A stretch of 64,000 bases of DNA, from sequence record OQ990039; one strand, written 5' to 3'. Numbering within the stretch: position 1 is the first letter of the stretch; each line of letters starts with the position of its first letter. Below, piece by piece: positions 39,994-58,517 of this stretch. A model generated the notes under the pieces. It saw nothing but the letters and a program-made list of their open reading frames with translations, did not search any database and was not told the DNA's origin. The position numbers and the translations under genes were made by a program. The DNA comes from Escherichia phage SUT_E420.

Positions 39994-40022
39994 ATTATAC
40001 AGAATTTATAAGCATTTAGCAA
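39994..40022 (-). promoter_or_regulatory. T5-early-type promoter (-35 TTGCTA, -10 TATAAT)
   Basis: 17-bp spacer; no protein gene for about 900 bp downstream, so transcript is a long leader or ncRNA plus tRNA-Arg. Confidence 0.6.
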
Positions 40023-40030
40023 ATGAATTT

Positions 40031-40465
40031 TTAGAAAAATTCACTAGCAATCAAAGCAGTTGTTTTACCGTCATAACGTCCGGGAAATTCTGCCTTAATA
40101 GTTTTCATTAATAGAGCTTTGGTAATACCTGGGTTTAATTTAACCAGTTCTGCAAAATACTCACGAATCTGAACCTCAGTCAGTTGACTTGGCTGATACT
40201 CTTGCAGCATGGAATAAAGCAGTTGCTCATAGTCTACATCAGTAGGAACTTCCATACCAACTTTAATAGCGCGTTGTTTTGCATTTTCTAGAGCCTTAAT
40301 CTGAGCTTTCAGATAGGCTACGAACTCGGTTCGAGTAACAATGTCTTTATCAATACGTTGCAGATCACCAATCATGGTCTGAAGATTAAGTGCCCGTTCC
40401 TTATCACCGTGAGTACGTGCTAGACTAAGTAGTCCACGAAGGGTCATTAGAATATTTTCACCCAT
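40031..40465 (-). CDS. hypothetical protein
   Basis: 144-aa ORF; start overlaps stop of a small upstream ORF (TAATG). Confidence 0.5.
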   Translation of the reverse strand: MGENILMTLRGLLSLARTHGDKERALNLQTMIGDLQRIDKDIVTRTEFVAYLKAQIKALENAKQRAIKVGMEVPTDVDYEQLLYSMLQEYQPSQLTEVQIREYFAELVKLNPGITKALLMKTIKAEFPGRYDGKTTALIASEFF

Positions 40466-40635
40466 TATTTCATCCCCAATGCTTGGTTAAAAGATTGTTC
40501 TGTCATAACTGCTGAGACTTTGGCGAAATCAAACTTTTTAGGGTTCGTAGTTATTTCAGCAACGTTAGAAGTTTTAACAGTTTTCGTAGTACGAATACCG
40601 CGAGTGTTAACACCAATAATTACAACTGATTTCAT
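40465..40635 (-). CDS. small hypothetical protein (56 aa)
   Basis: Below ORF-track cutoff; MKSVVIIGVNTRG...; GAGG ribosome-binding site after promoter 40667-40695. Confidence 0.35.
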   Translation of the reverse strand: MKSVVIIGVNTRGIRTTKTVKTSNVAEITTNPKKFDFAKVSAVMTEQSFNQALGMK

Positions 40636-40666
40636 ATTTCGCTTCCTCTCATTAATTTATGAAAGT

Positions 40667-40695
40667 ATTATACAGAAATTTAAGTAGCTAAGCAA
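40667..40695 (-). promoter_or_regulatory. T5-early-type promoter (-35 TTGCTT, -10 TATAAT)
   Basis: 17-bp spacer, leader CTCATTAATTTATGAAAG. Confidence 0.6.
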
Positions 40696-40703
40696 GTAAA
40701 TTT

Positions 40704-41171
40704 TTAAGTTTTAGTGACAACAGGTTTATAGAATGTATGTCCCTTAATCTTAGTTGTTTTCTTAAACTTCTTTGTCCAGTAAGGTTTATCTTTACCACTA
40801 TGGAAGTATAGTGCTCCATATGTAGGATCTTGTGGTAAATCAACGTAGTATATCACTCTAGCTAAATTCTTAGCGGTTTGCCAAGCCTCATCAGTTTTAT
40901 CAACTTTTGGTCTCTTAGATACCCAAGAGAACTGGTTAGACTGATATACTACTTTACAGTAGGAATCTGGGAATTTACCGGAGTTTACACGGTTTTTAGT
41001 AACATGTGCAATCGCCGTCATTCCCTTTATGCCCTCACCACGACTTTCGAAATAGATATTTTTAGCAATGCAATCTATTTCTTTTGCATCGTGCGATGCC
41101 TGACTACTAAAGCTGAAGGTAAGGGCAGCTACTAAAAGCAAAGCTGCCTTCATTCTTTTTACTCCTGCCAA
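40704..41171 (-). CDS. secreted SleB-like cell-wall hydrolase
   Basis: 155 aa; signal peptide ending SQA; YFESRGEG, KNRV, SYCKVV and QFSW match the SleB/CwlJ signature. Confidence 0.6.
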   Translation of the reverse strand: MAGVKRMKAALLLVAALTFSFSSQASHDAKEIDCIAKNIYFESRGEGIKGMTAIAHVTKNRVNSGKFPDSYCKVVYQSNQFSWVSKRPKVDKTDEAWQTAKNLARVIYYVDLPQDPTYGALYFHSGKDKPYWTKKFKKTTKIKGHTFYKPVVTKT

Positions 41172-41476
41172 TCATATTCAACACGATTGGGATTTTCTTT
41201 ATACCCTAAGTCAAGCAAATCATTACGCATATTTTGCTTAGCTACTGGGTTCGAGGTTACTAGTACCACTTTCTTTGGTCTCTGCCCAAATTCTAAGAGT
41301 AAACGAAGAATTTGATAACCTTCCATACCATCTACAGCCAAGTCATTATCCATATAAACGAAATGGCCGGTGGTATCAGTTTTATTCAGAAACTCTACAG
41401 CGGCTTCTGGGGTTCGAATGATAATGTCCATTCCGTGAAGATTACGCACATCATCAATCAAAATATGAAAAGTCAT
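41159..41476 (-). CDS. stand-alone CheY-like receiver-domain protein (tentative)
   Basis: 105 aa; ILIDDV, YMDNDLAVDGMEGYQIL and VVLVTSN resemble receiver-domain acidic pocket, phospho-Asp and Thr positions. Confidence 0.4.
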   Translation of the reverse strand: MTFHILIDDVRNLHGMDIIIRTPEAAVEFLNKTDTTGHFVYMDNDLAVDGMEGYQILRLLLEFGQRPKKVVLVTSNPVAKQNMRNDLLDLGYKENPNRVEYDWQE

Positions 41477-41506
41477 AATAGCCTCGTTTCATCAATTTAA
41501 AAATAT

Positions 41507-41535
41507 ATTATACAGATAACTTAGTAACTTAGTAA
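41507..41535 (-). promoter_or_regulatory. T5-early-type promoter (-35 TTACTA, -10 TATAAT)
   Basis: 17-bp spacer, leader TCATCAATTTAAAAA. Confidence 0.5.
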
Positions 41536-41926
41536 ATTAGCAAATACATTTTTAAATTGTGAAACTAGTAAACCGATAAACAGCCTAGAGGCGCCACAGG
41601 CCATATCTTATGAGCCATGTACCTTTGATCTAGGGTTTGAATCATCAACGAATACTTTGCATCTTTTAGCTTTAGAAGTTTAGAAGTTTGAGTTCTTTAA
41701 ACTTTTCAGCTTTCATACTTAAATGTTGATCTTTGAAGTTGTGTCGGTAATATCAACGACGCTTTGTTCTTACGTGTCAGCTTAAAAGGCTGGTGTAATA
41801 AACATAATCTCCAATAGATTATACTTTATAGTATGGTCAGCGGTCTTATTTAACCCCGTATTTCAACCGCTGCTGCGAGGTAAGATGCTTGGGCTTTCGT
41901 CTACCGATTTACTAGCTTTTAAATTA

Positions 41927-42565
41927 TTACTCTACTTCAATGAAGGTAGAGGCGTTAGACTCGGACAGAACAAAGTCAACATTTGTTGCAAAGTCCTGGT
42001 ATTCCTCGTCATGCTGCTTAATCAACTTCTCCAGTTCCAGCGGATCAATCAAGAATGGAGTATTCTTGAGTTCCAGCAGGTTGAGTTGCATTTTAACTTC
42101 ATCTTCGGAAGTTTTCTTATCACGGGTAGCCATGCTATCCTGCAAACGCTCATATTTAGCATCAAACTGTGCTTTCTGCGTATTAAACTTAACCGTAGCG
42201 GCATGGAACTGCTTACGCATGTTAGCCAGCAGTTGAGCTTTAAGCTCCATAGAACGCTTAGCTTCAATTGCTTCCGCAACAGTCATTTTACGAGAACCGA
42301 TCTCAACGATTGTTTCTGCATTGCTCTTAATCAGAGCAGATTTAATACGATCACGCTGAGACATCATATCCAGCAGAGACTGGAAATCAGTCTTAATACG
42401 AGTAGACAGATCAGCTACTTCGATTGCAGCGCCAACTACAACCTGGTTTTTATCCTTACCTTCACCAACAGCGATCAGAAGCTGCTGTTCAGTAGCTTTA
42501 CGGATTTTAGCTTCCAGAGATTTGATAGTTGCTAGAGCGCGAGTTTTAGAAATACGAGTAGTCAT
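41927..42565 (-). CDS. hypothetical coiled-coil protein
   Basis: 212-aa ORF. Confidence 0.55.
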   Translation of the reverse strand: MTTRISKTRALATIKSLEAKIRKATEQQLLIAVGEGKDKNQVVVGAAIEVADLSTRIKTDFQSLLDMMSQRDRIKSALIKSNAETIVEIGSRKMTVAEAIEAKRSMELKAQLLANMRKQFHAATVKFNTQKAQFDAKYERLQDSMATRDKKTSEDEVKMQLNLLELKNTPFLIDPLELEKLIKQHDEEYQDFATNVDFVLSESNASTFIEVE

Positions 42566-42618
42566 TATTTGTTTCCTTATATGAGGTTTGAGATTTGAAT
42601 TTGTTTAAAGTTGGTCTA

Positions 42619-42801
42619 TTACAGACCAATTGCCAGCAGAGTGCGCAGAACAGTATCGTTACTGTTATCAATTTTAGGATTAGCACGATTTAGCAGATCA
42701 AAGATTTTCTGGACACCTGATTGACGTTCAGCCATACGACGGATACCCAGATTACGAGTAGCTTTCTTACCATTTTTACGAACATTTTTAGATACTGGCA
42801 T
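42619..42801 (-). CDS. small basic protein
   Basis: 60 aa, Lys/Arg-rich. Confidence 0.45.
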   Translation of the reverse strand: MPVSKNVRKNGKKATRNLGIRRMAERQSGVQKIFDLLNRANPKIDNSNDTVLRTLLAIGL

Positions 42802-42841
42802 ATTTGTTTTCCTTTTATTGTTTTCTCAAATTTATGAATAT

Positions 42842-42870
42842 ATTATACAGAATTTTGGAGCCGGAAGCAA
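42842..42870 (-). promoter_or_regulatory. T5-early-type promoter (-35 TTGCTT, -10 TATAAT)
   Basis: 17-bp spacer, leader CTCAAATTTATGAATA. Confidence 0.6.
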
Positions 42871-42871
42871 A

Positions 42872-43573
42872 TCAAATTTTCATTTTTTCGATCATAGCTG
42901 CAACACAATAGCTTTCAACTAAGGCATCAAATGCAGGATCATGCTTAACCGGATAGATCCCATAACGAATGGTGTCCATCTTCTCCATTTTAGCTTTTGC
43001 CCAGCTAATACCTTCAGCCTCTAGATCTTTGTAACTATAATCAGCTTGCATCCAGAGATTACGAAGAGATCGAACATTGCCCAAATTCCAGAATTTCCAC
43101 GGAACTACCTCTTCATTGGTTCCAGCATGGAATGTGTTTGCAGAGTAGATAGTCATATCAAACTCTGGGCCATTACCATAATACAAAGCATTTTCGCCTA
43201 GAGCCAACTCCATAATATTTTGAGCCATAGAGAAGGCAGCATAGTTTGAGCCAAATTTATTAGTGCAATGATGTTTACCATTTTGGAAGGCAATCAGTTT
43301 TGGATTACGTTCCTTCATAGCTTCCATAATGTGAATAGCAGACGGGCTATTTTTAGCTTGATCCATCCAGAATGCTAGAGTAGATGCTGTAACTTTAGCA
43401 CCAGAATTAAGCTGATCTTGTACATCCAAAGTAACAAATACTAGATCAGGGTCTTTATCAATTCCATGCATAGCCACAAAAGCGAAAGAAGGCATTGCGA
43501 TATGAGTAGTACCACAATCTCCTGGAGTTCCCAGAGATTCAATATCTAGCATACCAAATGGTTTTACTTTCAT
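42872..43573 (-). CDS. DnaQ-like 3'-5' exonuclease (DEDD family)
   Basis: 233 aa; LDIESLG (Exo I), YGNGPEFDMTIY (Exo II) and KHDPAFDAL (Exo III) motifs. Confidence 0.6.
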   Translation of the reverse strand: MKVKPFGMLDIESLGTPGDCGTTHIAMPSFAFVAMHGIDKDPDLVFVTLDVQDQLNSGAKVTASTLAFWMDQAKNSPSAIHIMEAMKERNPKLIAFQNGKHHCTNKFGSNYAAFSMAQNIMELALGENALYYGNGPEFDMTIYSANTFHAGTNEEVVPWKFWNLGNVRSLRNLWMQADYSYKDLEAEGISWAKAKMEKMDTIRYGIYPVKHDPAFDALVESYCVAAMIEKMKI

Positions 43574-43601
43574 AAGTTATCCTTTATTGTGTAGAAAACT
43601 A

Positions 43602-43838
43602 TTAAAGAGCTGTCTCTTTAATAGACTCCCACTTCTTGGGGTCTTTAAAACCAGGGAGCATATCCTCACTGACATCCCAGTTCTCTTCCATAGAGAAGTC
43701 GGGCCATTCATCCCAACTACCTTCCAACTCTTCATAACAGGTATCCATTACCTCATGACTAGAAAGTCGTGTATAATCCCTAGCTGACTTATGGGTGGTA
43801 GCACGGTTAAAATCATTCTTTGCCACAAAATTACGCAT
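43602..43838 (-). CDS. hypothetical acidic protein
   Basis: 78-aa ORF. Confidence 0.45.
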   Translation of the reverse strand: MRNFVAKNDFNRATTHKSARDYTRLSSHEVMDTCYEELEGSWDEWPDFSMEENWDVSEDMLPGFKDPKKWESIKETAL

Positions 43839-43839
43839 A

Positions 43840-43871
43840 GTTTCTCCAAATAAGAGGGGCTTTCGCCCCCT
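43840..43871 (-). terminator. candidate rho-independent terminator
   Basis: GC stem GAGGGGC/GCCCCCT between two co-oriented genes. Confidence 0.45.
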
Positions 43872-43879
43872 GATTTAAA

Positions 43880-44095
43880 TCACTTGCCCAGCAGTTTAAG
43901 GATATTTTCCATAATAGTTTGGGCAGATTTTTCACTCTTGTTGGTTTCAGCCAACTTTAAAGCGAGTTCTTCCTGCTGTTTCTGAATATCAGCTGCGATT
44001 TTTTGATCAGCCTCAATACGAGCTTGAAGCTCATCAGTGATAGTGGTAAAGGAAGCAACGATTTCAGTAACAGAACGTGGTTTCTTAGAGAACAT
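43880..44095 (-). CDS. hypothetical coiled-coil protein
   Basis: 71-aa ORF. Confidence 0.45.
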   Translation of the reverse strand: MFSKKPRSVTEIVASFTTITDELQARIEADQKIAADIQKQQEELALKLAETNKSEKSAQTIMENILKLLGK

Positions 44096-44159
44096 AAAAA
44101 ATATCCTTGATTAGTTAGAGAATTAGTGGATTGTAGGGGCTTCTGCCCCTATTTATCTA

Positions 44160-44675
44160 TTACTTCGCTTTACGCTTGCGAGCTGGTTTAGCAGATTTAC
44201 GAGCAGAATCACCAGTGAACTTAATGCCTACACCGTAACACAGAGCGCGAACATTATCTTTACTATACTCTACGCCAAAGATATTTGGCTTAACAGAACC
44301 AAACTGTCCACGAGTATCGCGCAATACATCTGCTGTTGGTTTACGCTTCTGGTTAACTGCCTTCTCGTAGTCTTTCATAGACATACCATTACGAGAGAAC
44401 AATTCAGCCCCAGCGTTGAAACTCAAAGATACTGGGACAGATTTGTGGCCGTAATTTTCTACATACATAACCATTTTGTAGGATTTACGGGTGGCATTTT
44501 TAGCTTTAGGCTTCTTACGAATCGGAGCCGGATTATTCAATGCTTGCGCAGCCTGAGCATCGGTAGGATGCTTACGCAGGTGACGTTCCAGACGAGCTTT
44601 GCGATTAGCCTCGGTCTGCGGGAAAGTTTTAACTGCCGGGGCTGCTTGAGTTTTTGCGTTTTTCTGCTTAGCCAT
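44160..44675 (-). CDS. basic protein, possible nucleic-acid binding
   Basis: 171 aa, Lys/Arg-rich at both ends. Confidence 0.5.
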   Translation of the reverse strand: MAKQKNAKTQAAPAVKTFPQTEANRKARLERHLRKHPTDAQAAQALNNPAPIRKKPKAKNATRKSYKMVMYVENYGHKSVPVSLSFNAGAELFSRNGMSMKDYEKAVNQKRKPTADVLRDTRGQFGSVKPNIFGVEYSKDNVRALCYGVGIKFTGDSARKSAKPARKRKAK

Positions 44676-44713
44676 TATTTGTTTTCCTTTTTGTTTATCA
44701 ATTTATGAAGTAT

Positions 44714-44742
44714 ATTATACGAGAATTTGAAGCGTTTAGCAA
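44714..44742 (-). promoter_or_regulatory. T5-early-type promoter (-35 TTGCTA, -10 TATAAT)
   Basis: 17-bp spacer. Confidence 0.6.
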
Positions 44743-44750
44743 ATGAATTT

Positions 44751-45200
44751 TTAATTTATTAACTGTAAGCTTCTTTTAATTTCAGACCTTACTTGCATCA
44801 AAAGGACTCCTAAAGTATTATCCCCGATGCCTCGGCAAACACCCCAATATGTATCTCCCCAGGTATTTCCTTCGATCAAAGTTGCATTTTCTGTTGCTAA
44901 CAGTTTATCTCTTAAATCAGGAATTGCAAACTTTAATCGTAAAAGCTCTAGCATTACATCATCTTTTACTTTATCCCAGTCAGAGCGTAGGGTTAATTTA
45001 CGTCCTCTACGTTTAGCAACTCCTGCATTTAGGGAGCGGAGTACATGAGCTACATCATCTTTTTGGTCGGATTTCATAGCCTGAAAAGCATGTTCTACAG
45101 TATCAGCATGCCATATCTCATTTAGATATTCGAAAGTAATTGGTGATAAATAAAAGTTAGATAAGAAACTATAAGTACCTTTAAATTCAGTAATCTTCAT
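44751..45200 (-). CDS. NADAR-domain protein (YbiA-like, DUF1768)
   Basis: 149 aa; FLSNFY, EHAFQAMK, W..VKDDVM, LRLKF and GDTYWG...LGVLLMQVR follow the YbiA/NADAR pattern. Confidence 0.75.
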   Translation of the reverse strand: MKITEFKGTYSFLSNFYLSPITFEYLNEIWHADTVEHAFQAMKSDQKDDVAHVLRSLNAGVAKRRGRKLTLRSDWDKVKDDVMLELLRLKFAIPDLRDKLLATENATLIEGNTWGDTYWGVCRGIGDNTLGVLLMQVRSEIKRSLQLIN

Positions 45201-45481
45201 TTTTTACGCCCCGCATCTTTAGCCTCCTCGGCTGTATAGATATACTGATAAGCCCCTTTGGAGTAGGCTGGAGCAGTACACATTTTCTTACGCTCAATCT
45301 CTTCTTGAGCTTTTCTTTCGCGTTCCGCTAATTCTTCGTCCAAATAAACTAAACGTTGTTCTGGAGGAGGTGGAAGACGTGTTTCTGGCTCGCCAATATT
45401 AGCCTTTCTTATTTGACGAGGTGATTGTGCACGTTTTCTCAATGGTTTAAATCCTAATGAATTTGAGTTATAGATCCGCAT
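45197..45481 (-). CDS. small basic protein
   Basis: 94-aa ORF. Confidence 0.45.
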   Translation of the reverse strand: MRIYNSNSLGFKPLRKRAQSPRQIRKANIGEPETRLPPPPEQRLVYLDEELAERERKAQEEIERKKMCTAPAYSKGAYQYIYTAEEAKDAGRKK

Positions 45482-45508
45482 AAAGCCCTCCTCACTTTCA
45501 ATACGAAT

Positions 45509-45537
45509 ATTATACTAAATTATAGGGCTTTAAGCAA
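45509..45537 (-). promoter_or_regulatory. T5-early-type promoter (-35 TTGCTT, -10 TATAAT)
   Basis: 17-bp spacer. Confidence 0.6.
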
Positions 45538-45558
45538 GAGAATTTTTTAATTTATTTA

Positions 45559-46047
45559 TCACATCTCAGCCATTTCAGCTTCAGTAATAACTGTATTACA
45601 TAAGGCGTCTACAGCCTCATTACCACTAATACCAGAATGTCCTTTAACCTTAATAAAGGTAGGGTTAGTATTATGAAAGTTGATATACTGCTGTGTTAAT
45701 TTAAATGCTTCCTGCCAAAGTTCTAGATTAAGAGGAACTTCACCATCTGCTTTCTTCCAGCCTTTCCTTTGCCAAGAAAACATCCAACTTTCCATGCCAT
45801 TTTTGCAATAAGCAGAGTCAGTATAGATAGCAATTGGTCTATTATCTTTTTTAACAGACCAACGTAGGGCTTCTACGATAGCTGTGAGTTCCATCTCATT
45901 ATTTGTAGTTTTAGGATTATAACCAGATTTAGAACCTAAACGATCGTCGTTATCATCATAGACAATAAAACCCCAAGCACCTGGACCTGGATTAGACTTA
46001 CAAGCACCATCTGTGTAAATGTGGAAAACCGACATTATACCTCCCAA
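45559..46047 (-). CDS. rnh: ribonuclease H (RNase HI-like)
   Basis: 162 aa; IYTDGACKSNPGPGAWGF N-terminal motif and YTDS, GHSG regions typical of RNase HI. Confidence 0.8.
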   Translation of the reverse strand: MGGIMSVFHIYTDGACKSNPGPGAWGFIVYDDNDDRLGSKSGYNPKTTNNEMELTAIVEALRWSVKKDNRPIAIYTDSAYCKNGMESWMFSWQRKGWKKADGEVPLNLELWQEAFKLTQQYINFHNTNPTFIKVKGHSGISGNEAVDALCNTVITEAEMAEM

Positions 46048-46316
46048 CTAATTTTAAGACCCATGTCTACAAAGGCGGCTTCTCGGTAGTATTGAGAGAG
46101 ATGATACCCCTTATCCGATAAGGTTTTTAGTACCGATTTAGCGGCTCCTGGCATTTCTCTAGGATTATATAGCCACCTAGCGTAAGGATTATCTCGAATA
46201 ATTACTTCTGTATTTCCAGACTTAGCAGCTTCTACAATCTTTTCTTCTATAAACTTTAGAAAAGCGGGTACTTCTGTTAATCCTGCAAGTTCTTGGGCTT
46301 CTTTGGCTGAAATCAT
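46035..46316 (-). CDS. hypothetical protein
   Basis: 93-aa ORF. Confidence 0.45.
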   Translation of the reverse strand: MISAKEAQELAGLTEVPAFLKFIEEKIVEAAKSGNTEVIIRDNPYARWLYNPREMPGAAKSVLKTLSDKGYHLSQYYREAAFVDMGLKISWEV

Positions 46317-46516
46317 GGCTTTTCACCTTCTGCTACACTTCTGGTTTTTGGTGGGATGGGAGGGTTAGGTTTTATAGCCGCTAATTCCCTATCTAAGAAT
46401 TCCTCTATTGCTCTATCTACAAAGTAGTCATAGGGTAAATGATAATGTTCTGATAGAGTAAGAAGTTTGTGCTCTTGGCTTTCTGTTAAATAAACTTTCT
46501 TTCTAAAGAGTCCCAT
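46313..46516 (-). CDS. hypothetical protein
   Basis: 67-aa ORF. Confidence 0.45.
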   Translation of the reverse strand: MGLFRKKVYLTESQEHKLLTLSEHYHLPYDYFVDRAIEEFLDRELAAIKPNPPIPPKTRSVAEGEKP

Positions 46517-46542
46517 ATGTGTATCTCCAATCTATAAAATAT

Positions 46543-46571
46543 ATTATATTTAAATTTCACTAAATAAGCAA
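46543..46571 (-). promoter_or_regulatory. T5-early-type promoter (-35 TTGCTT, -10 TATAAT)
   Basis: 17-bp spacer. Confidence 0.55.
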
Positions 46572-46588
46572 ATGAAATTTAAATATAA

Positions 46589-46604
46589 TAGCCCCGAAGG
46601 GCTA
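46589..46604 (-). terminator. rho-independent terminator after thyA
   Basis: Hairpin AGCCCC-GAA-GGGGCT just downstream of thyA stop, T/A-rich flank. Confidence 0.55.
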
Positions 46605-46610
46605 TTTAAA

Positions 46611-47465
46611 TTACACAGTGAATGGATATGCAATAGCAGGATGGTGTTCGTAACCACGAACAGTAAAATCATCCTTATTTACCCAGGTCAATACATCCTC
46701 CAGAGTTCGGATATTTGGATTGATTTCTAGAGTAGGAGGTGCAAAGGGTTCACGATCAAATTGCTTATGCTCCATCAAAACATTATACTGATCCTCATAG
46801 ATATGAAGATTGATAATCTTCTGGCGTGCAATCCCTGGTTTAAGGCCTGTAATCTGTGCCATTAATGCTAGAAGCGTATAGCACTGAACCATGTTAAATA
46901 CTTGGCCTAACAGGAAGTCATTAGATCTCTGGAAAGAGTTCAGATATAATGTATCTCCCAAAATAGAGAACTGATGAGTATGCATACATGGACGTAAGCA
47001 ACCCTTTGAGAACTCCCCCGGATTCCAGAAGGTTAGAATTTCCCCACGATCATCAATGCCCTTTTTCAGATTATGATAAATCTTGGCTAGTTGGTCAAAC
47101 ATAAGACCATCGGAATTAGTCCACTGACGTCCTTGAACACCATAGACTCGTCCCATATCATCCTCACCTTTACGGTATGGATTGTCTAGCCAAGCTAAGT
47201 TTTCATTTGCATTAGCATTCCATGTGTTAACACCAATAGCGCGGAATTGTGCTGCTGAATCATACCCACGTAGATACCCAATCATTTCCATTATTGCTTG
47301 TTTTGCAAACGCCTTACGAGTAGTAATAAGTGGGAATTCACCTGCACCTACGTTAAAAGTAAAATCTGCATCAATAATGGTGAGGCAACGAACCCCTGTT
47401 CTGGGATTCGTTACCCACTGACCTTCTGATAGAATACGTTTTCCAACTTCTATATACTGATCCAT
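46611..47465 (-). CDS. thyA: thymidylate synthase
   Basis: 284 aa; full-length ThyA-like sequence including catalytic-Cys region (CMHTHQF). Confidence 0.85.
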
Positions 47466-47998
47466 TAATAAGTAACCAATTCCTGTACAAATCGCAGGCT
47501 GTTATCACTGTTTGCGCCAGTTGCGTAAACTAAACGAGTAGATTCATAGTTGTAATCTAGAATCGTATTATCCAGATATACATCTGCCTCTAGTTTTTGA
47601 TTACTAAAGATTGTGGATACAAAAGCACTTTCAATATGACCATATTGATACATTTCTAGAAGAAGGTTAGCACCACCTAGAACTACTGTCTGCTGATCTT
47701 TCAGAAATGTAGGTAAAGCATCCCCAATCTTAGAAATTGGGGTGTAAATATCATGTGTAATATCATCTGGCAGTGGACGATCAGCACGAATAAATAGGTC
47801 AGAAGCTCCAATCATACGTTCTCTAACGGCGTATGGAAGAGCTAAATAAGTACCCGCACCAATGATGATGTTATCTGGATTCAACACGTCCAGTTGAGAA
47901 TAGAAAGCATCTAGTTCTTCTTTGAAGGAACCCCATGGAAGTTTACCGCGGAGGCCGAACTCCCCATTCGGCCCAACTGCATACATTGCTGTAATCAT
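47465..47998 (-). CDS. frd: dihydrofolate reductase
   Basis: 177 aa; [15 protein letters not shown]... start, adjacent to thyA with overlapping stop/start. Confidence 0.75.
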
Positions 47999-49140
47999 AA
48001 GAAATCTCCAAATTCATTACCCAGATCTTTCAGAGTATCAGTAGAGGTCTCAGTTACCTGACCTACACGGTAGGCTGCACCAATCTGGATTTCTTGTGGA
48101 GCAGGCTGTAGAGAAGTAGTATCCAACCAGTTCATAATCCACGGAATAGGGTTTTTGGTGATTACTGGTAAATGACTAGGCCATTCTACACCGATGTGCA
48201 TAAATGCATTACGTCCCACAAAATACAGATATTCTTCTAGAAGTTCTGCATTCAAGCCAATCAGACTACGACCTTTGAAAATGAAATGACCCCATTCAAT
48301 TTCAGTTTTCAGAGTTTTCAGGAGCTGTGCTGGTGCTTTAGCCACTGCTTCATCTACCAGATCTTTGTCAAATTGCTGAAACATAATCTGGATGATTGCT
48401 TTGGACATCTGAGTGTGCAGAGCTTCATCTTTAGCGATTAATTGCAGATTTTTAGCAATACCTTGCAGAATATCGTTCTCTGCTAATGCAAAGGTACATG
48501 CAAAGGATGCGTAAAACTGCATTGCTTCCAGACCATAGATCGCAAAGTAAGCGTCTAATAGTTTAGCCTGAGTTTCACGTTTAACTTCAGGGAACTCAGT
48601 TTCTGGATATGTATTGTCGCCACGATGATCGCGTACTGCGATGAAATACTGACCTAACTGGTACAGTTCATCGAATAGTTCAACAGAATCAGCGATGCGC
48701 GCGAATGCTTCTTGGTTTTTGGTTACAGAATCAATAAATTCTGCTGGATCAGTCAGCACATTACGAATAATATTGCTATAAGCACGACTATGCAGGTCTT
48801 CAAAATAGCTCCACTGTTTGAGCATACCTTCCAATTCTGGACGACTTACAAGCGGCATAATAGCTGCTTCAGGGGCACGACTAATAAAGGAATCAGTTTG
48901 AGTTTGCCATGCTAAGTTCAGGAGTGTAATTTCCTGAATTTCTCGTGGGAGATTAGGCCATTGTTTCTTATCTGCTTCCAGACTGATTTCAGTTTCAGTC
49001 CAAAATTGAGAGCGCTGCAGAAGTGCCAGACGTTCTAGTTCTGGATGTGCTACACGTACATAATCTGCGATACCGAGAGAATCTCCCAGGAAAAGGTCGG
49101 CGTTAGTATGATCCCAATTCAGGTTTAGTAAAGTAGTCAT
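47995..49140 (-). CDS. nrdB: ribonucleotide reductase small subunit
   Basis: 381 aa; di-iron/tyrosyl-radical region (EAMQFYASFACTFALAE) and conserved C-terminus. Confidence 0.85.
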   Translation of the reverse strand: MTTLLNLNWDHTNADLFLGDSLGIADYVRVAHPELERLALLQRSQFWTETEISLEADKKQWPNLPREIQEITLLNLAWQTQTDSFISRAPEAAIMPLVSRPELEGMLKQWSYFEDLHSRAYSNIIRNVLTDPAEFIDSVTKNQEAFARIADSVELFDELYQLGQYFIAVRDHRGDNTYPETEFPEVKRETQAKLLDAYFAIYGLEAMQFYASFACTFALAENDILQGIAKNLQLIAKDEALHTQMSKAIIQIMFQQFDKDLVDEAVAKAPAQLLKTLKTEIEWGHFIFKGRSLIGLNAELLEEYLYFVGRNAFMHIGVEWPSHLPVITKNPIPWIMNWLDTTSLQPAPQEIQIGAAYRVGQVTETSTDTLKDLGNEFGDFL

Positions 49141-49171
49141 TGATTTTCCTCTTTCTCACTATTTCAGGAAT

Positions 49172-49200
49172 ATTATAGCAAATCTGGTAGCGATTAGCAA
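49172..49200 (-). promoter_or_regulatory. T5-early-type promoter for nrdB (-35 TTGCTA, -10 TATAAT)
   Basis: 17-bp spacer. Confidence 0.55.
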
Positions 49201-49206
49201 GTAAAA

Positions 49207-49689
49207 TTATAAACTATCAAGCTCCAATAGTTTAGCATCGCGCCATTCTATAGCATCCTCTAATTCTTTGAATGTTTTAGTATGTTTTACACCTTTTCTA
49301 GCAATCTGGACTTGGTAAGATCCGCTTGCTTTTTGGTGTATATTCTTAATACCTAACTTATTGTCTTTGTGCGCTCCGACATTCTTTCCATTGTTAAATC
49401 TATCAGATGCTAATAAATTAATTGCTCTATTATCATGACGTATTCTGTTGTCATGGTCTACTTCTTTTGGAATGTATCCATGAGTGATATAGAATGCTAG
49501 GATATGTGCATAGTATTTTTTACCCCTTACTTGCATTACTATATACCCTGAGCATTTTTCTAGAGAACCTGCTTCTTTGCCAGCAAACTTAGTATTAAAG
49601 GATTTATCTTCTCTAGGTTTGTGGGTAAAGATTCCAGTTTCTGGATTATAGTCAAATAACCCAGCTATTTCTTTATATTTTTCTTCCAT
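49207..49689 (-). CDS. HNH homing endonuclease
   Basis: 160 aa; HNH motif VDHDNRIRHDNRAINL; inserted between nrdA and nrdB. Confidence 0.7.
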   Translation of the reverse strand: MEEKYKEIAGLFDYNPETGIFTHKPREDKSFNTKFAGKEAGSLEKCSGYIVMQVRGKKYYAHILAFYITHGYIPKEVDHDNRIRHDNRAINLLASDRFNNGKNVGAHKDNKLGIKNIHQKASGSYQVQIARKGVKHTKTFKELEDAIEWRDAKLLELDSL

Positions 49690-49721
49690 AATCTAAAATT
49701 ACAGCTATGATAGGCCTAATA

Positions 49722-49739
49722 AAGGGGCTTTCGCCCCTT
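49722..49739 (-). terminator. hairpin, probable terminator after nrdA
   Basis: Stem AAGGGGC/GCCCCTT with 4-nt loop, 5 bp downstream of nrdA stop. Confidence 0.5.
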
Positions 49740-49744
49740 ATTTA

Positions 49745-52078
49745 TTATAATTGACAACCACCGGATGCACATCCAGCAGCAGCTTCTTCACCTGCACCTC
49801 CACCATTTGCAGTATTGAAGTTTGCATAGTAGAAAGTTTTCCACCCATACTTAACAGCAGTCATGAAATCACGAACTACTACTGGGCCAGGAATGATTTC
49901 ATTCTCAAACTTGGTGTAGTCATAGTACATATTCGTACTGATAGACTGACTGAAGAATTTCTGCATAGTTGCTACCCACTTGATCCACTCGATACGATCT
50001 ACATCATAAGCCAGTTTATAGCTCATTAACGTTTCCCAATCGGTTGCACCTGGAGCAATTGCAATTACTTTATTTACTGCACTACCCTTGATAGATACAA
50101 TCTTACGAGGTGGTTCGATAGAGTTAGTAACACCTAACAGAACAGAAGAACTTTCTCCCGGCATCTGAGCAGTCAGAACAGAGTTACGCATACCATATTT
50201 CAGAATATCTGCACGCAGAGACTCCCAATCCATTTCTAGACCTACGGATACCAGTTCATCAACAGTTTTCTTGTACGTGTCGATTACCAGAATTCCTTTA
50301 GATGGTTTAGTACGATCAAACCACTCACATGCACCCTGTTCTTTAGCTAGGCGTACAGAGGCTTTATGCAGGAAGTAAGACAGTTTTTCAGCCTCACGGT
50401 GAATCCAGTTACGAGCTTCAATACCTTCATAAGCCAGACCTTCTGCTGCCATTGCACCTGCTGCGTTCATCAGGCCAATACCAACATTACGACGTTTCTT
50501 AGCCGTATATTCCATAGTTGGGAACGGATAATCCTGAATTTCAATAATTGTATCAACGAATTTCAGAAGGATGTAGCAAGTTTTTTCCCACTCAGCCAGA
50601 GATTCCATGCGTCCAAGTACAACACCGCCTAAGTTACACAGAGATACTTCACCAATATCCTCCGGCTTCATTTGATCAAGTTGTTCTTTTGTTTTATACA
50701 GTTCCGTGATATGATGGAACGGGCGTGTAGGCTGAGTAATTTCAACACAAAGGTTTGTCATACGGATCGGATCAAGGAAGTTACCGTGACGATTAGATTC
50801 CCCGATGTGATGAGCATACATACGTCCTGTTTCCATTCGGATACGTAGCCAAGTATCTAGGATTTCTTTTGCAGAGACTTTAGGAGCTGCTGGAACTGTT
50901 TTTCCTTCGTGGTCGATCTTTGTAAGAGATGCCACACGTTTCTCCGCTGCCACGTAGATTTCTTCAAATTTAGCCTCGTCATCACTATAAAACGCTTCAT
51001 GAACTTCTGGAGCATAGAAGTATGACATTAGCGTAATATCTTCGTTTTTAAGATAACGTTTTAACAAAAGATTGTTAAAGCTCAGAGAATAGTCCATCTT
51101 ATCGATTTTATTCTCATCTGTAGCACGTTGTTGCTTAACCTGCATCAATTGAATGATTTCAGGGTCGAAGTACGTATAAGACACTGTGGCAGAACCACCA
51201 CGAGTTTGCTGAGTATTGGCCTTTACTGAGCGGTCAATGTGTCGATAATATGGCAGTTTTCCGGAATGCGGGAATGCCCCATTTCGCACCGGATCAGCAA
51301 TTGATCGGCTTTCAAGATGATACCCGATTCCCGCTCTGGCTGCGACCATTTTGAAGACGATGTGCTCGGCGGTGTCGATTGAATCCAACGTGTCAGTGGA
51401 ATCCACGAGGCAGCAACTAGCAAATCCACGGTCACTAGAGCGCAGACCAACCAGTGGCGGCGTAGGAATGTTGATTTTGTGGAGTGACATTGCGTTGTAG
51501 AGGTCGATTGCATCTAGAATTGTCCAGTTAGGTTGAGATAACATCGCCATTGCCATACCCATGTAGGCAAACTGCGGAGTTTCATAGATTTCACCAGTGG
51601 CTATGTTACGACGGGAATACTTATCAAAGAACTGTTTCAGCCCACCACTAGTAAAAAGACGGTCACGATCATGGTCGATAACCTGATTCAGAGCTTCAAA
51701 TTGCTCATCGGTAATCCATGCACTCATGTCTTCCCATGCACCTACGCTAACCATATGGTCATGGAAGAAGCGCAGAGAAGGTGGTTCGAAGGAATCATAG
51801 AGGCGTTTACGCATTTGCGCAAGACGTAATTCCTTTGCTGGCACATCATATGCTGGATTATCTTTGATAAGACTTTCAGCAGCTTTAATTAATGCATCCA
51901 TCAGAGTGTCGGAATCTACAACCCCTTTAGGCAGAGTTTTTTGAGCAGCCATAGTAATGGCTGACCAACTTACATCAACTGTTTTGCAACCATACTCCGC
52001 CCAACCATTGAGTTTTTCAGGAGCAAAGTCTTCTACAGTACCGTCACGTTTAATTACTTTTTCAATGCGATGGCTCAT
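49745..52078 (-). CDS. nrdA: ribonucleotide reductase large subunit
   Basis: ORF 49745-52183 trimmed to MSHRIEKVIKRDGT (ATP-cone start) after AAGGAA ribosome-binding site; CNLG and catalytic regions present. Confidence 0.85.
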   Translation of the reverse strand: MSHRIEKVIKRDGTVEDFAPEKLNGWAEYGCKTVDVSWSAITMAAQKTLPKGVVDSDTLMDALIKAAESLIKDNPAYDVPAKELRLAQMRKRLYDSFEPPSLRFFHDHMVSVGAWEDMSAWITDEQFEALNQVIDHDRDRLFTSGGLKQFFDKYSRRNIATGEIYETPQFAYMGMAMAMLSQPNWTILDAIDLYNAMSLHKINIPTPPLVGLRSSDRGFASCCLVDSTDTLDSIDTAEHIVFKMVAARAGIGYHLESRSIADPVRNGAFPHSGKLPYYRHIDRSVKANTQQTRGGSATVSYTYFDPEIIQLMQVKQQRATDENKIDKMDYSLSFNNLLLKRYLKNEDITLMSYFYAPEVHEAFYSDDEAKFEEIYVAAEKRVASLTKIDHEGKTVPAAPKVSAKEILDTWLRIRMETGRMYAHHIGESNRHGNFLDPIRMTNLCVEITQPTRPFHHITELYKTKEQLDQMKPEDIGEVSLCNLGGVVLGRMESLAEWEKTCYILLKFVDTIIEIQDYPFPTMEYTAKKRRNVGIGLMNAAGAMAAEGLAYEGIEARNWIHREAEKLSYFLHKASVRLAKEQGACEWFDRTKPSKGILVIDTYKKTVDELVSVGLEMDWESLRADILKYGMRNSVLTAQMPGESSSVLLGVTNSIEPPRKIVSIKGSAVNKVIAIAPGATDWETLMSYKLAYDVDRIEWIKWVATMQKFFSQSISTNMYYDYTKFENEIIPGPVVVRDFMTAVKYGWKTFYYANFNTANGGGAGEEAAAGCASGGCQL

Positions 52079-52220
52079 TTGGCTTTCCTTTTTATAGTTA
52101 TCAGGATTTAAGGAATATTCTACTTTATTATCGGTCATTAGGCAAATAAAATTTTCTGATAGAAAAGGCCCGAGTATTTTCATACCCAGGCCCTGTATAT
52201 TACCAGTCTAGCTTTTTAGC

Positions 52221-52511
52221 TTATTCAATTACTTTAGCTCTAGCTACTTCTTTTAATAGAATATCTATGGAGGTGCTCAGCTCGTTATAATTGAATGGTT
52301 TATTTGGATTTGAGGTTACAATTTTCCACGCTAGGGTTGTCTTAGGACTTTCTTCCCCTTCCTTACGTGTAATCATATTAGCAGCACTCAGTGAAGTACG
52401 ATGTATTTTAGTTTTACGGCTCAGATGAACGACGTTTCCCATATTACACCTTCCCCATGTCTTTAAAAATATCATAGAATGCTTTAGACTCAACAGAACG
52501 AACGTTATCAA
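52221..52511 (-). CDS. hypothetical protein
   Basis: 96-aa ORF overlapping phoH end. Confidence 0.4.
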   Translation of the reverse strand: MITFVLLSLKHSMIFLKTWGRCNMGNVVHLSRKTKIHRTSLSAANMITRKEGEESPKTTLAWKIVTSNPNKPFNYNELSTSIDILLKEVARAKVIE

Positions 52512-53205
52512 TCAATTCGATCATTGAGAATGGGGCATTTTCGTATTTTTCATAGACTTCCATAAGGAGTGCTAGACCTGAGTCACCTTTAATGTCTTTC
52601 TGAGCTATATCTCCGCAGATAATTAAACGGCAGTCTTGTCCTACACGAGTTAGGAGACAAATCATTGCCTCAACGGAAATATTCTGAGCTTCATCGACAA
52701 TTACATAGGAGTTGTTGAAAGTTCTGCCACGAGCATGTTCGACAGCCAAAAATTTAATTTTCTGACGTTCGACATATCCTTTATACGCATGATCGCCGAT
52801 GGCCCATTTCATACCATCAGCTATTGGCTCCAACCAAGGCTCTAGCTTTTCCGCTAGATCACCAGGAAGCATACCAAGAGACTTACCTAGAGGTTCATTA
52901 GGACGTACGAGAATCACTTGCTCAATATCTGAGTGAATGTCTGCGAGTTCCTGAGCTGCAAGAACGGACGGAATAAAGGTTTTACCAGTACCTGGCTCAC
53001 CGATACCCACAGTCACTGTGTTGTTCTTGATCATATTGATATATGATTTTTGCTCGCGGTTTTTACCTACTAGGGATTTAGCAACTGGGTTAGCGTAATC
53101 ATTAGAAAAATCAGCCTGAATTACGTTATTCTCATATTTGTTGCCACGCTTTCTTGAACCATTACGGTTCTCTCTTTTTTGACGTGCTTTTCCCATAAAT
53201 AACAC
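52444..53205 (-). CDS. phoH: PhoH-like ATPase
   Basis: 253 aa; Walker A GEPGTGKTF and Walker B-like IVDEAQN. Confidence 0.8.
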   Translation of the reverse strand: MLFMGKARQKRENRNGSRKRGNKYENNVIQADFSNDYANPVAKSLVGKNREQKSYINMIKNNTVTVGIGEPGTGKTFIPSVLAAQELADIHSDIEQVILVRPNEPLGKSLGMLPGDLAEKLEPWLEPIADGMKWAIGDHAYKGYVERQKIKFLAVEHARGRTFNNSYVIVDEAQNISVEAMICLLTRVGQDCRLIICGDIAQKDIKGDSGLALLMEVYEKYENAPFSMIELIDNVRSVESKAFYDIFKDMGKV

Positions 53206-53269
53206 TCCTATAGTGTACTTCGCTAACAGAGGATCAACAAAAAGATCTTGTTTATCAACTTACAAATAT

Positions 53270-53298
53270 ATTATACCAATATATACAGTAAAAAGCAA
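53270..53298 (-). promoter_or_regulatory. T5-early-type promoter for phoH-nrdA operon (-35 TTGCTT, -10 TATAAT)
   Basis: 17-bp spacer, in divergent intergenic region. Confidence 0.55.
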
Positions 53299-53490
53299 CT
53301 ACAATTTTAAATAAGCCTATGATATTGCATTTAAATAAAAAATTTGCTTGCTTTTAACGTGAGATGTGTGATACTAGATAATCATTTTATATCGCGTGCA
53401 CGAGTGTGTGATTATACAATTTTTAATAGAGATTGGCAAATAAAATTTTTTGACTCAGATCATGTTACAGAACTTTATAGTAAAATATTG

Positions 53491-53519
53491 TTGACATCCG
53501 CCCTCGAATGAGTTATAAT
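53491..53519 (+). promoter_or_regulatory. consensus sigma70 promoter for nrdD (-35 TTGACA, 17 bp, -10 TATAAT)
   Basis: Perfect hexamers; GAAGGAG ribosome-binding site follows. Confidence 0.7.
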
Positions 53520-53548
53520 AGTAGTCTTAGTTAGAGAAGGAGAGTATA

Positions 53549-55423
53549 ATGAATCGCAATGAAGAACTAAAGTATAAAGAAATGCAGGCGTTAATTAGAA
53601 ACTGCAAAGAGATTATCGAAGGGTCAGCAGATGAAGAGCTGCTGTTTAATAATGCTAATAAACCCTCAGAACGTTTCCCTACACAAAGGGATATGCTTGC
53701 AGGTGAATTGAGTAAGTATCTGATTCTAGAAGAAATGCCAATTCAGATTCGAAATGCTCATATGATTGGGGATATTCATTTCCATGATGCTGATTATGCT
53801 GCATTAGGCATGACTAACTGTTGTCTGGTAGCTTTGGAAGATATGTTGAAGAATGGTATGAAGGTTGGTAATGCTGAAATTAGCACTCCAAACTCTATCA
53901 CTACTGCGGCGGCTATTACTGCTCAGATTATCACTCAGGTTAGCTCCCATCAGTATGGTGGTACTTCTGTAGACCGCCTTGATGAAGTATTAGCCCCTTA
54001 TGTTCGTAAATCATATGACAAAAATCATGCGTTTGCAAAACGTTGGACTAAGGATGAAGCCAAAGCATCCGTAATGGCTACGGAGATGACTGAAAAGGAA
54101 GTCTATGACGCTTGTCAGGGTTTAGAATATGAAATCAATACCATGTTCAACTCTAACGGTCAGAGTCCATTTATTACCTTTGGTTTTGGTCTAGGAACTT
54201 CTTGGGAAGCACGTCTAGTACAGAAAGCAATACTGAAAGTACGCATGGATGGTTTAGGTATCAATAAACGTACAGCTATCTTCCCGAAACTGGTATTTGT
54301 ACTTCGTGATGGTGTTAACATGAAACCAGGAGATGTTAATTATGACATCAAGAAGTTAGCTATGAAATGTACTGCTGAACGTATGTATCCAGATTATATC
54401 AGCTATGACAAAGTTGTAGAAGTTACTGGAGACTATAAAGTTTCTATGGGCTGTCGTTCATTCCTAGCTGCTACAGAAGATGGTGAAACTGCCGGTCGTA
54501 ATAACTTAGGTGTTGTTTCTGTAAACTTGCCTAGAATTGCTATCGAAGCTGAAGGAAATATTGACCTATTTTTTGATTTGCTTGAACTGCGTGTGGATAC
54601 AGCGTTAAAAGCATTGGAGTGGAGAGTTGATCGCTTAAAATACATCCAAGCTAAAGCTGCACCCATCCTCTATATGTCAGGAGCCTTTGGGTTACGCTTG
54701 GAGCCTGATGAATATGTATTCGATCATTTCTATAATCGTGCTTCTGTATCTCTAGGGTATATTGGCTGCCATGAAATGCTACAGTTCATGTTTGGCAAAG
54801 ATATAGACACAATGTCCGAGACCTGCATCAAGTTTGTTCAGCGTGTATTGCAGTACATGCGGGATAGAGTCGATCAGAAGAAGGAAGAAACTAAGTTAGG
54901 TTATAGCCTGTATGCTACACCATCAGAATCCCTATGTGATCGCTTTTGTCGTCTAGACCGTGAATATTTCCCGGAACATGAAGATATTCTGTCCAAAGGA
55001 TACTACACTAACTCTCACCACCTTGATGTGGAACGTAAAGTTGCTCCTAACGTGAAATTTGATTATGAATCTAACTTTACTCCGATTGCTTCTGGTGGGT
55101 GTATTTCCTACGTAGAATTACCGGATATGAAACGATTCCCAGATGCACTGGAATGGGTTATTAATTATGCTGCTAGTAAGGTTCATTACTTCGGTATTAA
55201 TACTCCAGTGGATTCTTGCGGTAAATGTGGATTCTTAGGTGAAACAATAGCATCCGAAGATGGATTTAAGTGCCCTATCTGTGGTAATCATGACCCCGAA
55301 ACTCTTGAAGTAACTCGTCGAGTTTGTGGGTATCTTGGAAATCCGGGTGCTCGTCCATTTAACCCCGGCAAACAGCACGAGGTGATGGGCAGAGTGAAAC
55401 ATCAGGATATTCGAGCTAAATAA
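53549..55423 (+). CDS. nrdD: anaerobic ribonucleoside-triphosphate reductase
   Basis: 624 aa; C-terminal glycyl-radical motif RVCGYLG and Cys cluster CGKCG...CPICG. Confidence 0.8.
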   Translation: MNRNEELKYKEMQALIRNCKEIIEGSADEELLFNNANKPSERFPTQRDMLAGELSKYLILEEMPIQIRNAHMIGDIHFHDADYAALGMTNCCLVALEDMLKNGMKVGNAEISTPNSITTAAAITAQIITQVSSHQYGGTSVDRLDEVLAPYVRKSYDKNHAFAKRWTKDEAKASVMATEMTEKEVYDACQGLEYEINTMFNSNGQSPFITFGFGLGTSWEARLVQKAILKVRMDGLGINKRTAIFPKLVFVLRDGVNMKPGDVNYDIKKLAMKCTAERMYPDYISYDKVVEVTGDYKVSMGCRSFLAATEDGETAGRNNLGVVSVNLPRIAIEAEGNIDLFFDLLELRVDTALKALEWRVDRLKYIQAKAAPILYMSGAFGLRLEPDEYVFDHFYNRASVSLGYIGCHEMLQFMFGKDIDTMSETCIKFVQRVLQYMRDRVDQKKEETKLGYSLYATPSESLCDRFCRLDREYFPEHEDILSKGYYTNSHHLDVERKVAPNVKFDYESNFTPIASGGCISYVELPDMKRFPDALEWVINYAASKVHYFGINTPVDSCGKCGFLGETIASEDGFKCPICGNHDPETLEVTRRVCGYLGNPGARPFNPGKQHEVMGRVKHQDIRAK

Positions 55424-55430
55424 GCTAATC

Positions 55431-55465
55431 AGCCGGGTTGCTAGTCGACCTGGCTTTTATTTTAT
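55431..55465 (+). terminator. candidate rho-independent terminator after nrdD
   Basis: Imperfect stem AGCCGGG.../...CCTGGCT followed by TTTTATTTTATTT. Confidence 0.45.
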
Positions 55466-55494
55466 TTGCTTTCAGCCAAAAATTTATATATAAT
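55466..55494 (+). promoter_or_regulatory. T5-type promoter (-35 TTGCTT, 17 bp, -10 TATAAT)
   Basis: Followed by AGATTTATAAATTTGAGAGGAG leader, closely resembling T5 early promoters. Confidence 0.7.
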
Positions 55495-55522
55495 AGATTT
55501 ATAAATTTGAGAGGAGAAAGGT

Positions 55523-55903
55523 ATGGAATTAAAGCCCTATATAGTTGAGTCTACATGTGGTGGTTTCCATCTTGGCGTAGACGATCTTAGAGAAGCTATT
55601 TTTGCATCTACTGGAGATTATTCCCATCTAGAGGGTATTGGATATTCATCAATTATTGGTGATTGGGTAGAAACAAATCTAGATGTATCACCATATAACT
55701 CAGATTGCTTGTTTGACGAGGATGAGGATGAAATAAAGTATGATATTGAATTTGTTTATAATAGAGTATTAAAAGTATACCAACGTAATCCCGAGGGATA
55801 CGAAGATATTACTAAAGGTATTAAACAGTATCTTAAAGATGTATACTATAATTTTTCTGATGAAGACCTAGAAACAGTTGCAGTGGAGTTTAATAATGGC
55901 TAA
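55523..55903 (+). CDS. hypothetical acidic protein
   Basis: 126-aa ORF. Confidence 0.5.
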   Translation: MELKPYIVESTCGGFHLGVDDLREAIFASTGDYSHLEGIGYSSIIGDWVETNLDVSPYNSDCLFDEDEDEIKYDIEFVYNRVLKVYQRNPEGYEDITKGIKQYLKDVYYNFSDEDLETVAVEFNNG

Positions 55904-56102
55904 GAATGTAAAACATCTTAAATATCGCTTAATTTACAATGGACGTATGGAAACAGAAGACCTGGCCCAATTAGCTATTAATTCTAACGAGGTTACAGTG
56001 CGTGCGCTGGCAATTGAAAAGTTGCGTGCCTCTTATGAAAATCGTGTTATGGAACTAGAGGAGAAACTTTATGGCATTCTCGAAGCCGATGCTACCAGAT
56101 AA
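55878..56102 (+). CDS. hypothetical protein
   Basis: 74-aa ORF, probable start at MAKNVKH. Confidence 0.45.
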   Translation: MQWSLIMAKNVKHLKYRLIYNGRMETEDLAQLAINSNEVTVRALAIEKLRASYENRVMELEEKLYGILEADATR

Positions 56103-56292
56103 GGGTTTAAACGCCGCTTTGGAAAACGCATTAATGCAGCACTGGGAAACTGGCTATAAGGATGGTGTTGAATCCTGCGCTACTATGCTAGAAGTTATTG
56201 CTAATACCTTAATGGAGAAAGGCAATAAAGAATTAGCTGAGCTATTAGACAGTATTGGGCAAAACTTCAGAGAACAGGTGAAAAATGCGTAG
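56071..56292 (+). CDS. hypothetical protein
   Basis: 73-aa ORF. Confidence 0.45.
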   Translation: MAFSKPMLPDKGLNAALENALMQHWETGYKDGVESCATMLEVIANTLMEKGNKELAELLDSIGQNFREQVKNA

Positions 56293-57100: not shown

Positions 57101-57593
57101 TACTCCAATTATTTTTCTAGACATTGATGGGGTGCTCAATTCGAGCATCTCCCACTATCATGCACCTGATGATGAAAAGATTTTCTTTGGAAGTGATTGG
57201 GTTTTCAAACCGCTTCTCAAGGCTTTTCAGGACTTTATTCGTCCTTCTCCAATAATGATTGTTGGAGTATCATCTTGGTTCTCTGTCAGAAATGAGATGG
57301 AGAACGTTCAGATTATGACCGGATTAGGCCTTATCGATCGTTTTCTTGGTACAACGGATTTTACTGGTGGTGGATTATCTAGGGGTAATTCTGTTCTTCG
57401 CTTCGTTGAAAAGCATAAGCTCAAACATTGGTGTGTGCTTGATGATGCGGGTGCTATGATGTATCAGTATCCAACGGTTATAGTCAACGGTAGGACTGGT
57501 ATAAATCTTCAAGATTTAAAAGCTGTTAGCTATATGCTAGAATTTAGCCCAGATCTTGAAATGTGTAAATCCTTACAACAATTTAAGGTGTAA
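57081..57593 (+). CDS. HAD-superfamily hydrolase
   Basis: 170 aa; FLDIDGVL motif I at N-terminus, later LDDAG; start overlaps Sir2 gene end. Confidence 0.6.
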   Translation: MCQEISNTPIIFLDIDGVLNSSISHYHAPDDEKIFFGSDWVFKPLLKAFQDFIRPSPIMIVGVSSWFSVRNEMENVQIMTGLGLIDRFLGTTDFTGGGLSRGNSVLRFVEKHKLKHWCVLDDAGAMMYQYPTVIVNGRTGINLQDLKAVSYMLEFSPDLEMCKSLQQFKV

Positions 57594-57595
57594 AT

Positions 57596-58024: not shown

Positions 58025-58033
58025 GGAGGCAGA

Positions 58034-58423: not shown

Positions 58424-58449
58424 TGATTTTTATTAGCTGAACTCTGATT

Positions 58450-58475: not shown

Positions 58476-58517
58476 CCGTACTCAAGACCAATGATAGCAC
58501 CATCCGGAAAATTTTAC

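Follow-up and report, generated by a model that had tools for sequence, protein, structure and literature searches.

A predicted anti-DarTG1 NADAR gene of the AdfN-Bas32 type in the T5-like Escherichia phage SUT_E420

A 64,000-nucleotide stretch of Escherichia phage SUT_E420 (sequence record OQ990039), referred to below as the window, was analysed around a gene for a 149-aa NADAR-domain protein. We propose, with a probability of roughly 0.85, that the product of this gene is an AdfN-Bas32-type NADAR ADP-ribosylglycohydrolase, carried by the phage as an orphan, which counters the host defence DarTG1 by clearing guanine-ADP-ribose from DNA. The gene, its domain, fold, catalytic residues, accessory distribution and near-identity to AdfN-Bas32 were computed here. 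The neutralisation of DarT1 and the rescue of phages were taken from the literature. An anti-DarTG1 function of this gene is thus already known, and papers from 2023-2025 describe both the mechanism and the family.

The gene was confirmed as an exact open reading frame, and the profile search against NADAR/DUF1768 that the earlier note had called for gave a clear match. The score for Pfam NADAR PF08719 was 78.8 bits (E=7.2e-22), where the gathering cut-off is 35.1. The match was nearly full-length, spanning residues 9-142 of the protein and positions 9-163 of the 163-position model. The protein also matched phrog_1017 with E=1.2e-44, and PHROG 1017 was listed as 'unknown function'. In a nucleotide search, 95 phage records were found to carry the 450-bp gene, with identities of 90-100%. 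Comparison with the Bas33 copy showed 17 synonymous differences and 1 non-synonymous difference, and comparison with the Bas32 copy showed 10 and 1. These ratios (17:1 and 10:1) are the signature of purifying selection on the NADAR protein. The profile matches, the conservation in 95 records and the excess of synonymous differences together indicated that the reading frame is a genuine gene subject to selection, as opposed to a chance ORF.

The identity of the protein with AdfN-Bas32 was established by comparison with the GenBank entries for Bas32 and Bas33. The window protein was identical at 148 of 149 residues to bas32_0066 (MZ501075.1), with T9 in the window and A9 in Bas32. It was likewise identical at 148 of 149 residues to bas33_0070 (MZ501074.1), with E104 in the window and K104 in Bas33. 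Positions 9 and 104 were both variable in the NADAR family in an alignment of 33 homologues. The two BASEL phages, Bas32 IrisVonRoten and Bas33 HildyBeyeler, belong to Tequintavirus, the same genus as the window phage, which is T5-like (Demerecviridae, Markadamsvirinae, Tequintavirus). The locus was syntenic in all three phages, lying downstream of RNase H and between the T5p088 homologue and the DUF7022 gene. Judged by its sequence, the window gene is a near-identical ortholog of AdfN-Bas32. PMC11825919, in the part that treats these proteins, calls the Bas32 and Bas33 NADARs identical; in GenBank the two proteins are distinguished by two residues (A9 vs T9 and E104 vs K104).

AdfN-Bas32 was named by Johannesman, Awasthi, Carlson and LeRoux (Nat Commun 2025, PMC11825919; preprint PMC11257639) as the NADAR of T5-like BASEL phages, and the following results are those of the sections of that paper on this protein. 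Plasmid-borne expression of AdfN-Bas32 neutralised the toxicity of DarT1 in E. coli cells that were not infected. Ectopic AdfN-Bas32 brought RB69, T5 and Bas25 back to full titre on DarTG1 hosts. It was without effect on DarTG2, which modifies thymidine, and T5 was not rescued from this system. The anti-DarTG function suggested for the gene at the outset was therefore upheld for DarT1/DarTG1, the guanine-modifying system, on the strength of the 148/149 identity to a protein that neutralises DarT1. It did not extend to DarTG2. The same sections describe no deletion in Bas32 or Bas33, no purified-enzyme assay and no catalytic mutant for the AdfN-Bas32 clade. Literature searches for a native-context test of a T5-like NADAR gene returned nothing beyond the original paper. 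The published support for the clade, as presented there, consists entirely of ectopic expression, and this counts against our reading.

The mechanism would run as follows. The gene would be expressed early in infection, probably from the candidate promoter in Table 1 jointly with the 94-aa ORF. In a host carrying the DarTG1 toxin-antitoxin defence, DarT1 would put ADP-ribose on N2 of DNA guanine. It was reported that DarT1 links ADP-ribose to the guanine N2 amino group in DNA and that NADARs hydrolyse this linkage (PMC11543638). The AdfN-type NADAR would hydrolyse the guanine-N2-ADP-ribose bond, a chemistry that we infer for the Bas32 clade. Replication-blocking adducts would thereby be removed, and phage DNA synthesis would proceed. 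The target would be the modification and not the toxin, and no other phage factor would be required. Protection would then be expected in the native phage as well.

The structure of the protein was predicted with AlphaFold2. Using the alignment of 33 homologues, the model reached a pLDDT of 97.3 and a pTM of 0.90, whereas the single-sequence run gave an unusable model with a pLDDT of 49.6. The fold was a YbiA-like alpha-helical core with small flanking beta-sheets. In a Foldseek search of the PDB, only NADARs were significant. E. coli YbiA (2B3W) was matched with a TM of 0.82 and E 5e-9, and the Phytophthora nicotianae NADAR with ADP-ribose (8BAU) with a TM of 0.77 and E 4e-6. The match to the G. 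lovleyi DarG1 NADAR (8BAT) was weak, with a TM of 0.53 and E 0.77.

Active-site residues were mapped by profile alignment to 8BAU and 2B3W together with the family alignment, where the chain numbering of 8BAU equals that of the paper plus 2. In a pairwise phmmer alignment to 8BAU, the catalytic Glu and Lys were out of register by three residues, and the profile alignment was used instead. The mechanistic residues described by Schuller et al. (PMC11543638) are E43, K50 and E125 of PnNADAR, equivalent to E88, K95 and the D171/E173 region in the E. coli C7 NADAR. These three corresponded to E36, K43 and E110 of the window protein, so that the catalytic residues sought in an alignment were all present. 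The residues that contact ADP-ribose in PnNADAR are K75, R79, D86, W89, D130 and W133 (PMC11543638). They mapped to K63, R67, D74, W75, D116 and W119, respectively. E36 and K43 lay within the motif TVEHAFQAMK, which was aligned to SSEQYFMKRK of 8BAU. E36, K43, E110, D116 and W119 were invariant in 33/33 aligned homologues. These residues, together with the in vivo phenotype of AdfN-Bas32, point to a guanine-ADP-ribose glycohydrolase activity of the window protein.

This invariance also bears on a different mode of action, in which DarT1 would be blocked by binding and not by catalysis, as with AdfA(R164H). Such a mode has a precedent, since another phage NADAR protein is described in PMC11825919 as needing no enzymatic activity, unlike the AdfN proteins studied in that account. 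However, the five residues are conserved throughout the 33 homologues, AdfN-T4 requires E36 and K43, and it showed no two-hybrid interaction with DarT1. We regard blocking by binding as extremely improbable, and hydrolysis of the adduct by the NADAR protein remains the preferred explanation.

The placement of the protein within the NADAR superfamily was examined by comparison with known members. E. coli YbiA was both the best structure match (PDB 2B3W) and the best sequence match, with ~42% identity over 128 aligned residues. Like the window protein, YbiA is a minimal core without an N-terminal extension and has the same catalytic Glu/Lys/Glu. In the window protein, residue 9 aligned to model position 9, and the YbiA-type Glu was kept as E110. 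Unlike the phage protein, YbiA is a housekeeping N-glycosidase of riboflavin intermediates whose operon is LexA-controlled. The similarity raises the possibility that the phage protein is a YbiA-like N-glycosidase, which would clear reactive intermediates of riboflavin biosynthesis or serve a similar metabolite damage control. The profile TIGR02464 (NCBIfam, riboflavin biosynthesis intermediates N-glycosidase) was in fact matched with E=2.9e-18. However, its score of 66.6 bits was below the curated cut-off of 73.7, so the window protein was not filed as a YbiA equivalog. No riboflavin genes were found nearby, and the neighbours were early DNA-metabolism genes. The published phylogeny, in the portion of PMC11825919 that covers this clade, also places AdfN-Bas32 outside the YbiA-like clade. 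In addition, the one-residue variant of the window protein counters DarT1 according to that source, whereas YbiA does not (PMC11125620). We consider a riboflavin-related role very unlikely.

The comparison with YbiA also limits what can be read from the sequence. YbiA removed guanine-ADPr in vitro, yet DarT1 toxicity in cells was not rescued (PMC11125620). Because YbiA has the same catalytic residues and ~42% identity but gives no DarT1 rescue, sequence alone would not predict in vivo activity. The in vivo competence of the window protein would accordingly be read from its published one-residue variant and not from identifiable sequence features.

DarG1, the DarT1-linked antitoxin of the BC4488 subfamily, was tried as an assignment and rejected. 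DarG1 proteins (E. coli C7; G. lovleyi 8BAT) belong to the same NADAR superfamily, and would share with the window protein the hydrolysis of guanine-N2 ADP-ribose and the neutralisation of DarT1. However, the traits that characterise them were absent in the window protein. These are an adjacent DarT1, the N-terminal beta1-beta2-alpha1 DNA-binding extension and the catalytic Asp (D171 in E. coli C7). DarG1 uses this Asp two residues upstream of the position of E110; in the window protein L108 occupies the site and E110 is retained. The low TM to 8BAT was a further ground for the rejection. The NCBIfam profile NF053876 'NADAR family anti-phage protein' was also rejected, as its 44.8 bits were far below the cut-off of 240. 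PADLOC gave no DarG-type match and a weak match to the candidate system PDC-M42C (E=5e-7).

AdfN-T4 (T4 gp30.3) was also compared. Like the window protein, it is an orphan phage NADAR with the equivalent Glu and Lys, which are coincidentally also numbered E36 and K43. It counters DarTG1 by stripping ADP-ribose from DarT1-modified DNA, and both residues are needed. However, AdfN-T4 belongs to another NADAR clade, in which a T4-type His replaces the conserved Glu that is E110 in the window protein. BLAST and PSI-BLAST seeded with AdfN-T4 missed the Bas32 protein, as stated in the search described in PMC11825919. The two also differ in their behaviour in cells. AdfN-T4 requires the context of a T-even infection and fails on DarT1 in uninfected cells, whereas AdfN-Bas32 succeeds there.

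Since other NADAR substrates are known, namely guanine-ADPr in RNA, cytidine-ADPr and riboflavin intermediates, the DarTG1 reading has to be weighed against a wider activity. The protein might be a broad nucleic-acid de-ADP-ribosylase, whose main targets would be the products of guanine- or cytidine-ADP-ribosylating toxins other than DarT1, on DNA or RNA, with DarTG1 one of several. NADARs including the YbiA type reverse guanosine-ADPr on RNA (PMC11833690), and NADARs reverse cytidine-ADPr (PMC12945103). The YbiA-type catalytic E110 of the window protein fits with this. Johannesman et al. also note, in the text of PMC11825919 on this point, that it makes no difference to an adduct-directed enzyme which toxin produced the adduct. 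However, the only phenotype reported for the Bas32 clade in that paper's account of it concerns DarT1/DarTG1, and a broader range would extend the main explanation without excluding it. We judge it unlikely that toxins other than DarT1 are the main targets. A related and more general proposal is that the T5-type AdfN may erase base-linked ADP-ribose in general, from both guanine and cytidine and in DNA as well as RNA, and would thereby protect against several ADP-ribosyltransferase defences beyond DarTG1. Its patchy presence would then measurably help to determine which natural E. coli and Salmonella strains the phage can infect. This proposal is tentative, and we would give it a chance well short of even. 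Clearance of guanine-ADP-ribose made by DarT1 is retained as the main reading.

The genomic context of the gene was examined next to that of T5 and its relatives, and the features are collected in Table 1.

Table 1. Positions of the NADAR gene and of nearby genes and promoter elements in the window
Feature	Position	Strand	Description
adfN-type NADAR gene	44751..45200	minus	ATG start, 149 codons + TAA; predicted orphan ADP-ribosylglycohydrolase, catalytic E36, K43, E110
94-aa ORF, T5p088 homologue, upstream of NADAR gene	45197..45481	minus	ORF call, T5 alignment
Candidate promoter of the two-gene unit	45509..45537	minus	TTGCTT-17-TATAAT; equals T5 'putative promoter' upstream of T5p088
Counterpart of T5 promoter P-H207	44714..44742	minus	TTGCTA-17-TATAAT; 8 nt downstream of NADAR stop
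DUF7022 gene	44160..44675	minus	full-length match, 256 bits; Lys/Arg-rich at both ends
71-aa ORF	43880..44095	minus	
233-aa ORF	42872..43573	minus	Pfam Rv2179c-like 3'-5' exoribonuclease, 33.2 vs cut-off 27 bits
271-aa SIR2-family protein	56285..57100	plus	Pfam SIR2, 86 bits

The gene had been assigned to the early region, and its surroundings agreed with this. It belonged to a run of early genes for DNA metabolism on the minus strand, with NrdA/NrdB, DHFR, thymidylate synthase and RNase H upstream of it, and the T5 promoter P-H207 had its counterpart directly downstream. This counterpart drives the next gene, which encodes the DUF7022 protein; a gene for an Rv2179c-like exonuclease also lies downstream. 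No DarT gene or ART domain was found among the neighbours (RNase H, the 94-aa ORF, DUF7022 and the Rv2179c-like exonuclease), and the NADAR gene was therefore classed as an orphan.

The stop of the 94-aa ORF overlapped the NADAR start by 4 bp (ATGA), and from the first codon of this ORF to the NADAR stop the gene's strand showed no terminator-like site. The 94-aa ORF itself had no Pfam or NCBIfam match. The element upstream of this ORF was missed by the consensus scan because its -35 hexamer matches at only 3/6 positions. Taken together, the overlap, the lack of a terminator-like site and the upstream element suggested that the 94-aa ORF and the NADAR gene probably form one early transcription unit with translational coupling.

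Some of the labels given to neighbouring genes in related phages were also found to be doubtful. The counterparts of the 233-aa ORF in EC148 and Bas33 are called 'metallopeptidase', which looks wrong because of the Rv2179c-like match. For the 71-aa ORF, the records of EC148 and several relatives give the label 'tail length tape-measure protein'. Given the place of this ORF in the early region and the lack of a Pfam match, the label is almost certainly an annotation artefact. A separate observation concerned the SIR2-family protein, which is encoded ~11 kb from the NADAR gene. It is a second NAD-linked enzyme and could be relevant to NAD/ADP-ribose conflicts between phage and host.

The relatives of the window phage were compared at two scales. 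The 2.1 kb around the NADAR gene were 100% identical in the Escherichia phages EC148, SUT_E1520, SUT_E520 and T5_ev212. For the stretch 40000..64000 of the window, SUT_E520 and SUT_E1520 were the best matches, with 100% identity over 99% of the query, and EC148 gave 98.2%. The window and EC148 (ON185585.1) were not collinear, as the offset was 717 at the NADAR locus and 201 at nrdD. This change indicated indels of about 0.5 kb between the two loci (53549-57100 region compared).

Alignment of the locus with T5 (AY692264) showed that exactly the 450-bp NADAR gene is absent from T5. Compared with T5, the gene is a clean presence/absence cassette, with the stretches 44676-44750 and 45197-45260 of the window at its two borders. 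The left indel junction fell within the final ~20 codons of the 94-aa ORF, whose C-terminus differed between NADAR-plus and NADAR-minus phages. The right junction lay immediately upstream of P-H207. T5 is reported, in the infection results of PMC11825919, to be sensitive to DarTG1 and to be rescued by AdfN-Bas32. This sensitivity fits the absence of the gene in T5. In nucleotide searches, the flanks matched ~441 phage records and the gene was found in 95. The NADAR gene is thus an accessory gene carried by about a fifth of T5-like genomes, a distribution that would be expected of a counter-defence cassette.

Public labels of the gene were inconsistent and mostly stale. They included 'GTP cyclohydrolase II', 'swarming motility protein YbiA', 'N-glycosidase', 'DUF1768' and 'hypothetical protein', and the first two arose from the riboflavin N-glycosidase reading. 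The label 'antitoxin-like enzyme' was found only in the record of Salmonella phage WP85. Since the mechanism and the family have been published, the finding raises no new biological question. It does give a supported replacement for the stale labels, namely anti-DarTG1 NADAR (AdfN). It also leads to a prediction: in contrast to T5, the window phage should be able to plate on hosts that carry DarTG1. Such a difference would be useful in choosing T5-like phages for therapy or biocontrol.
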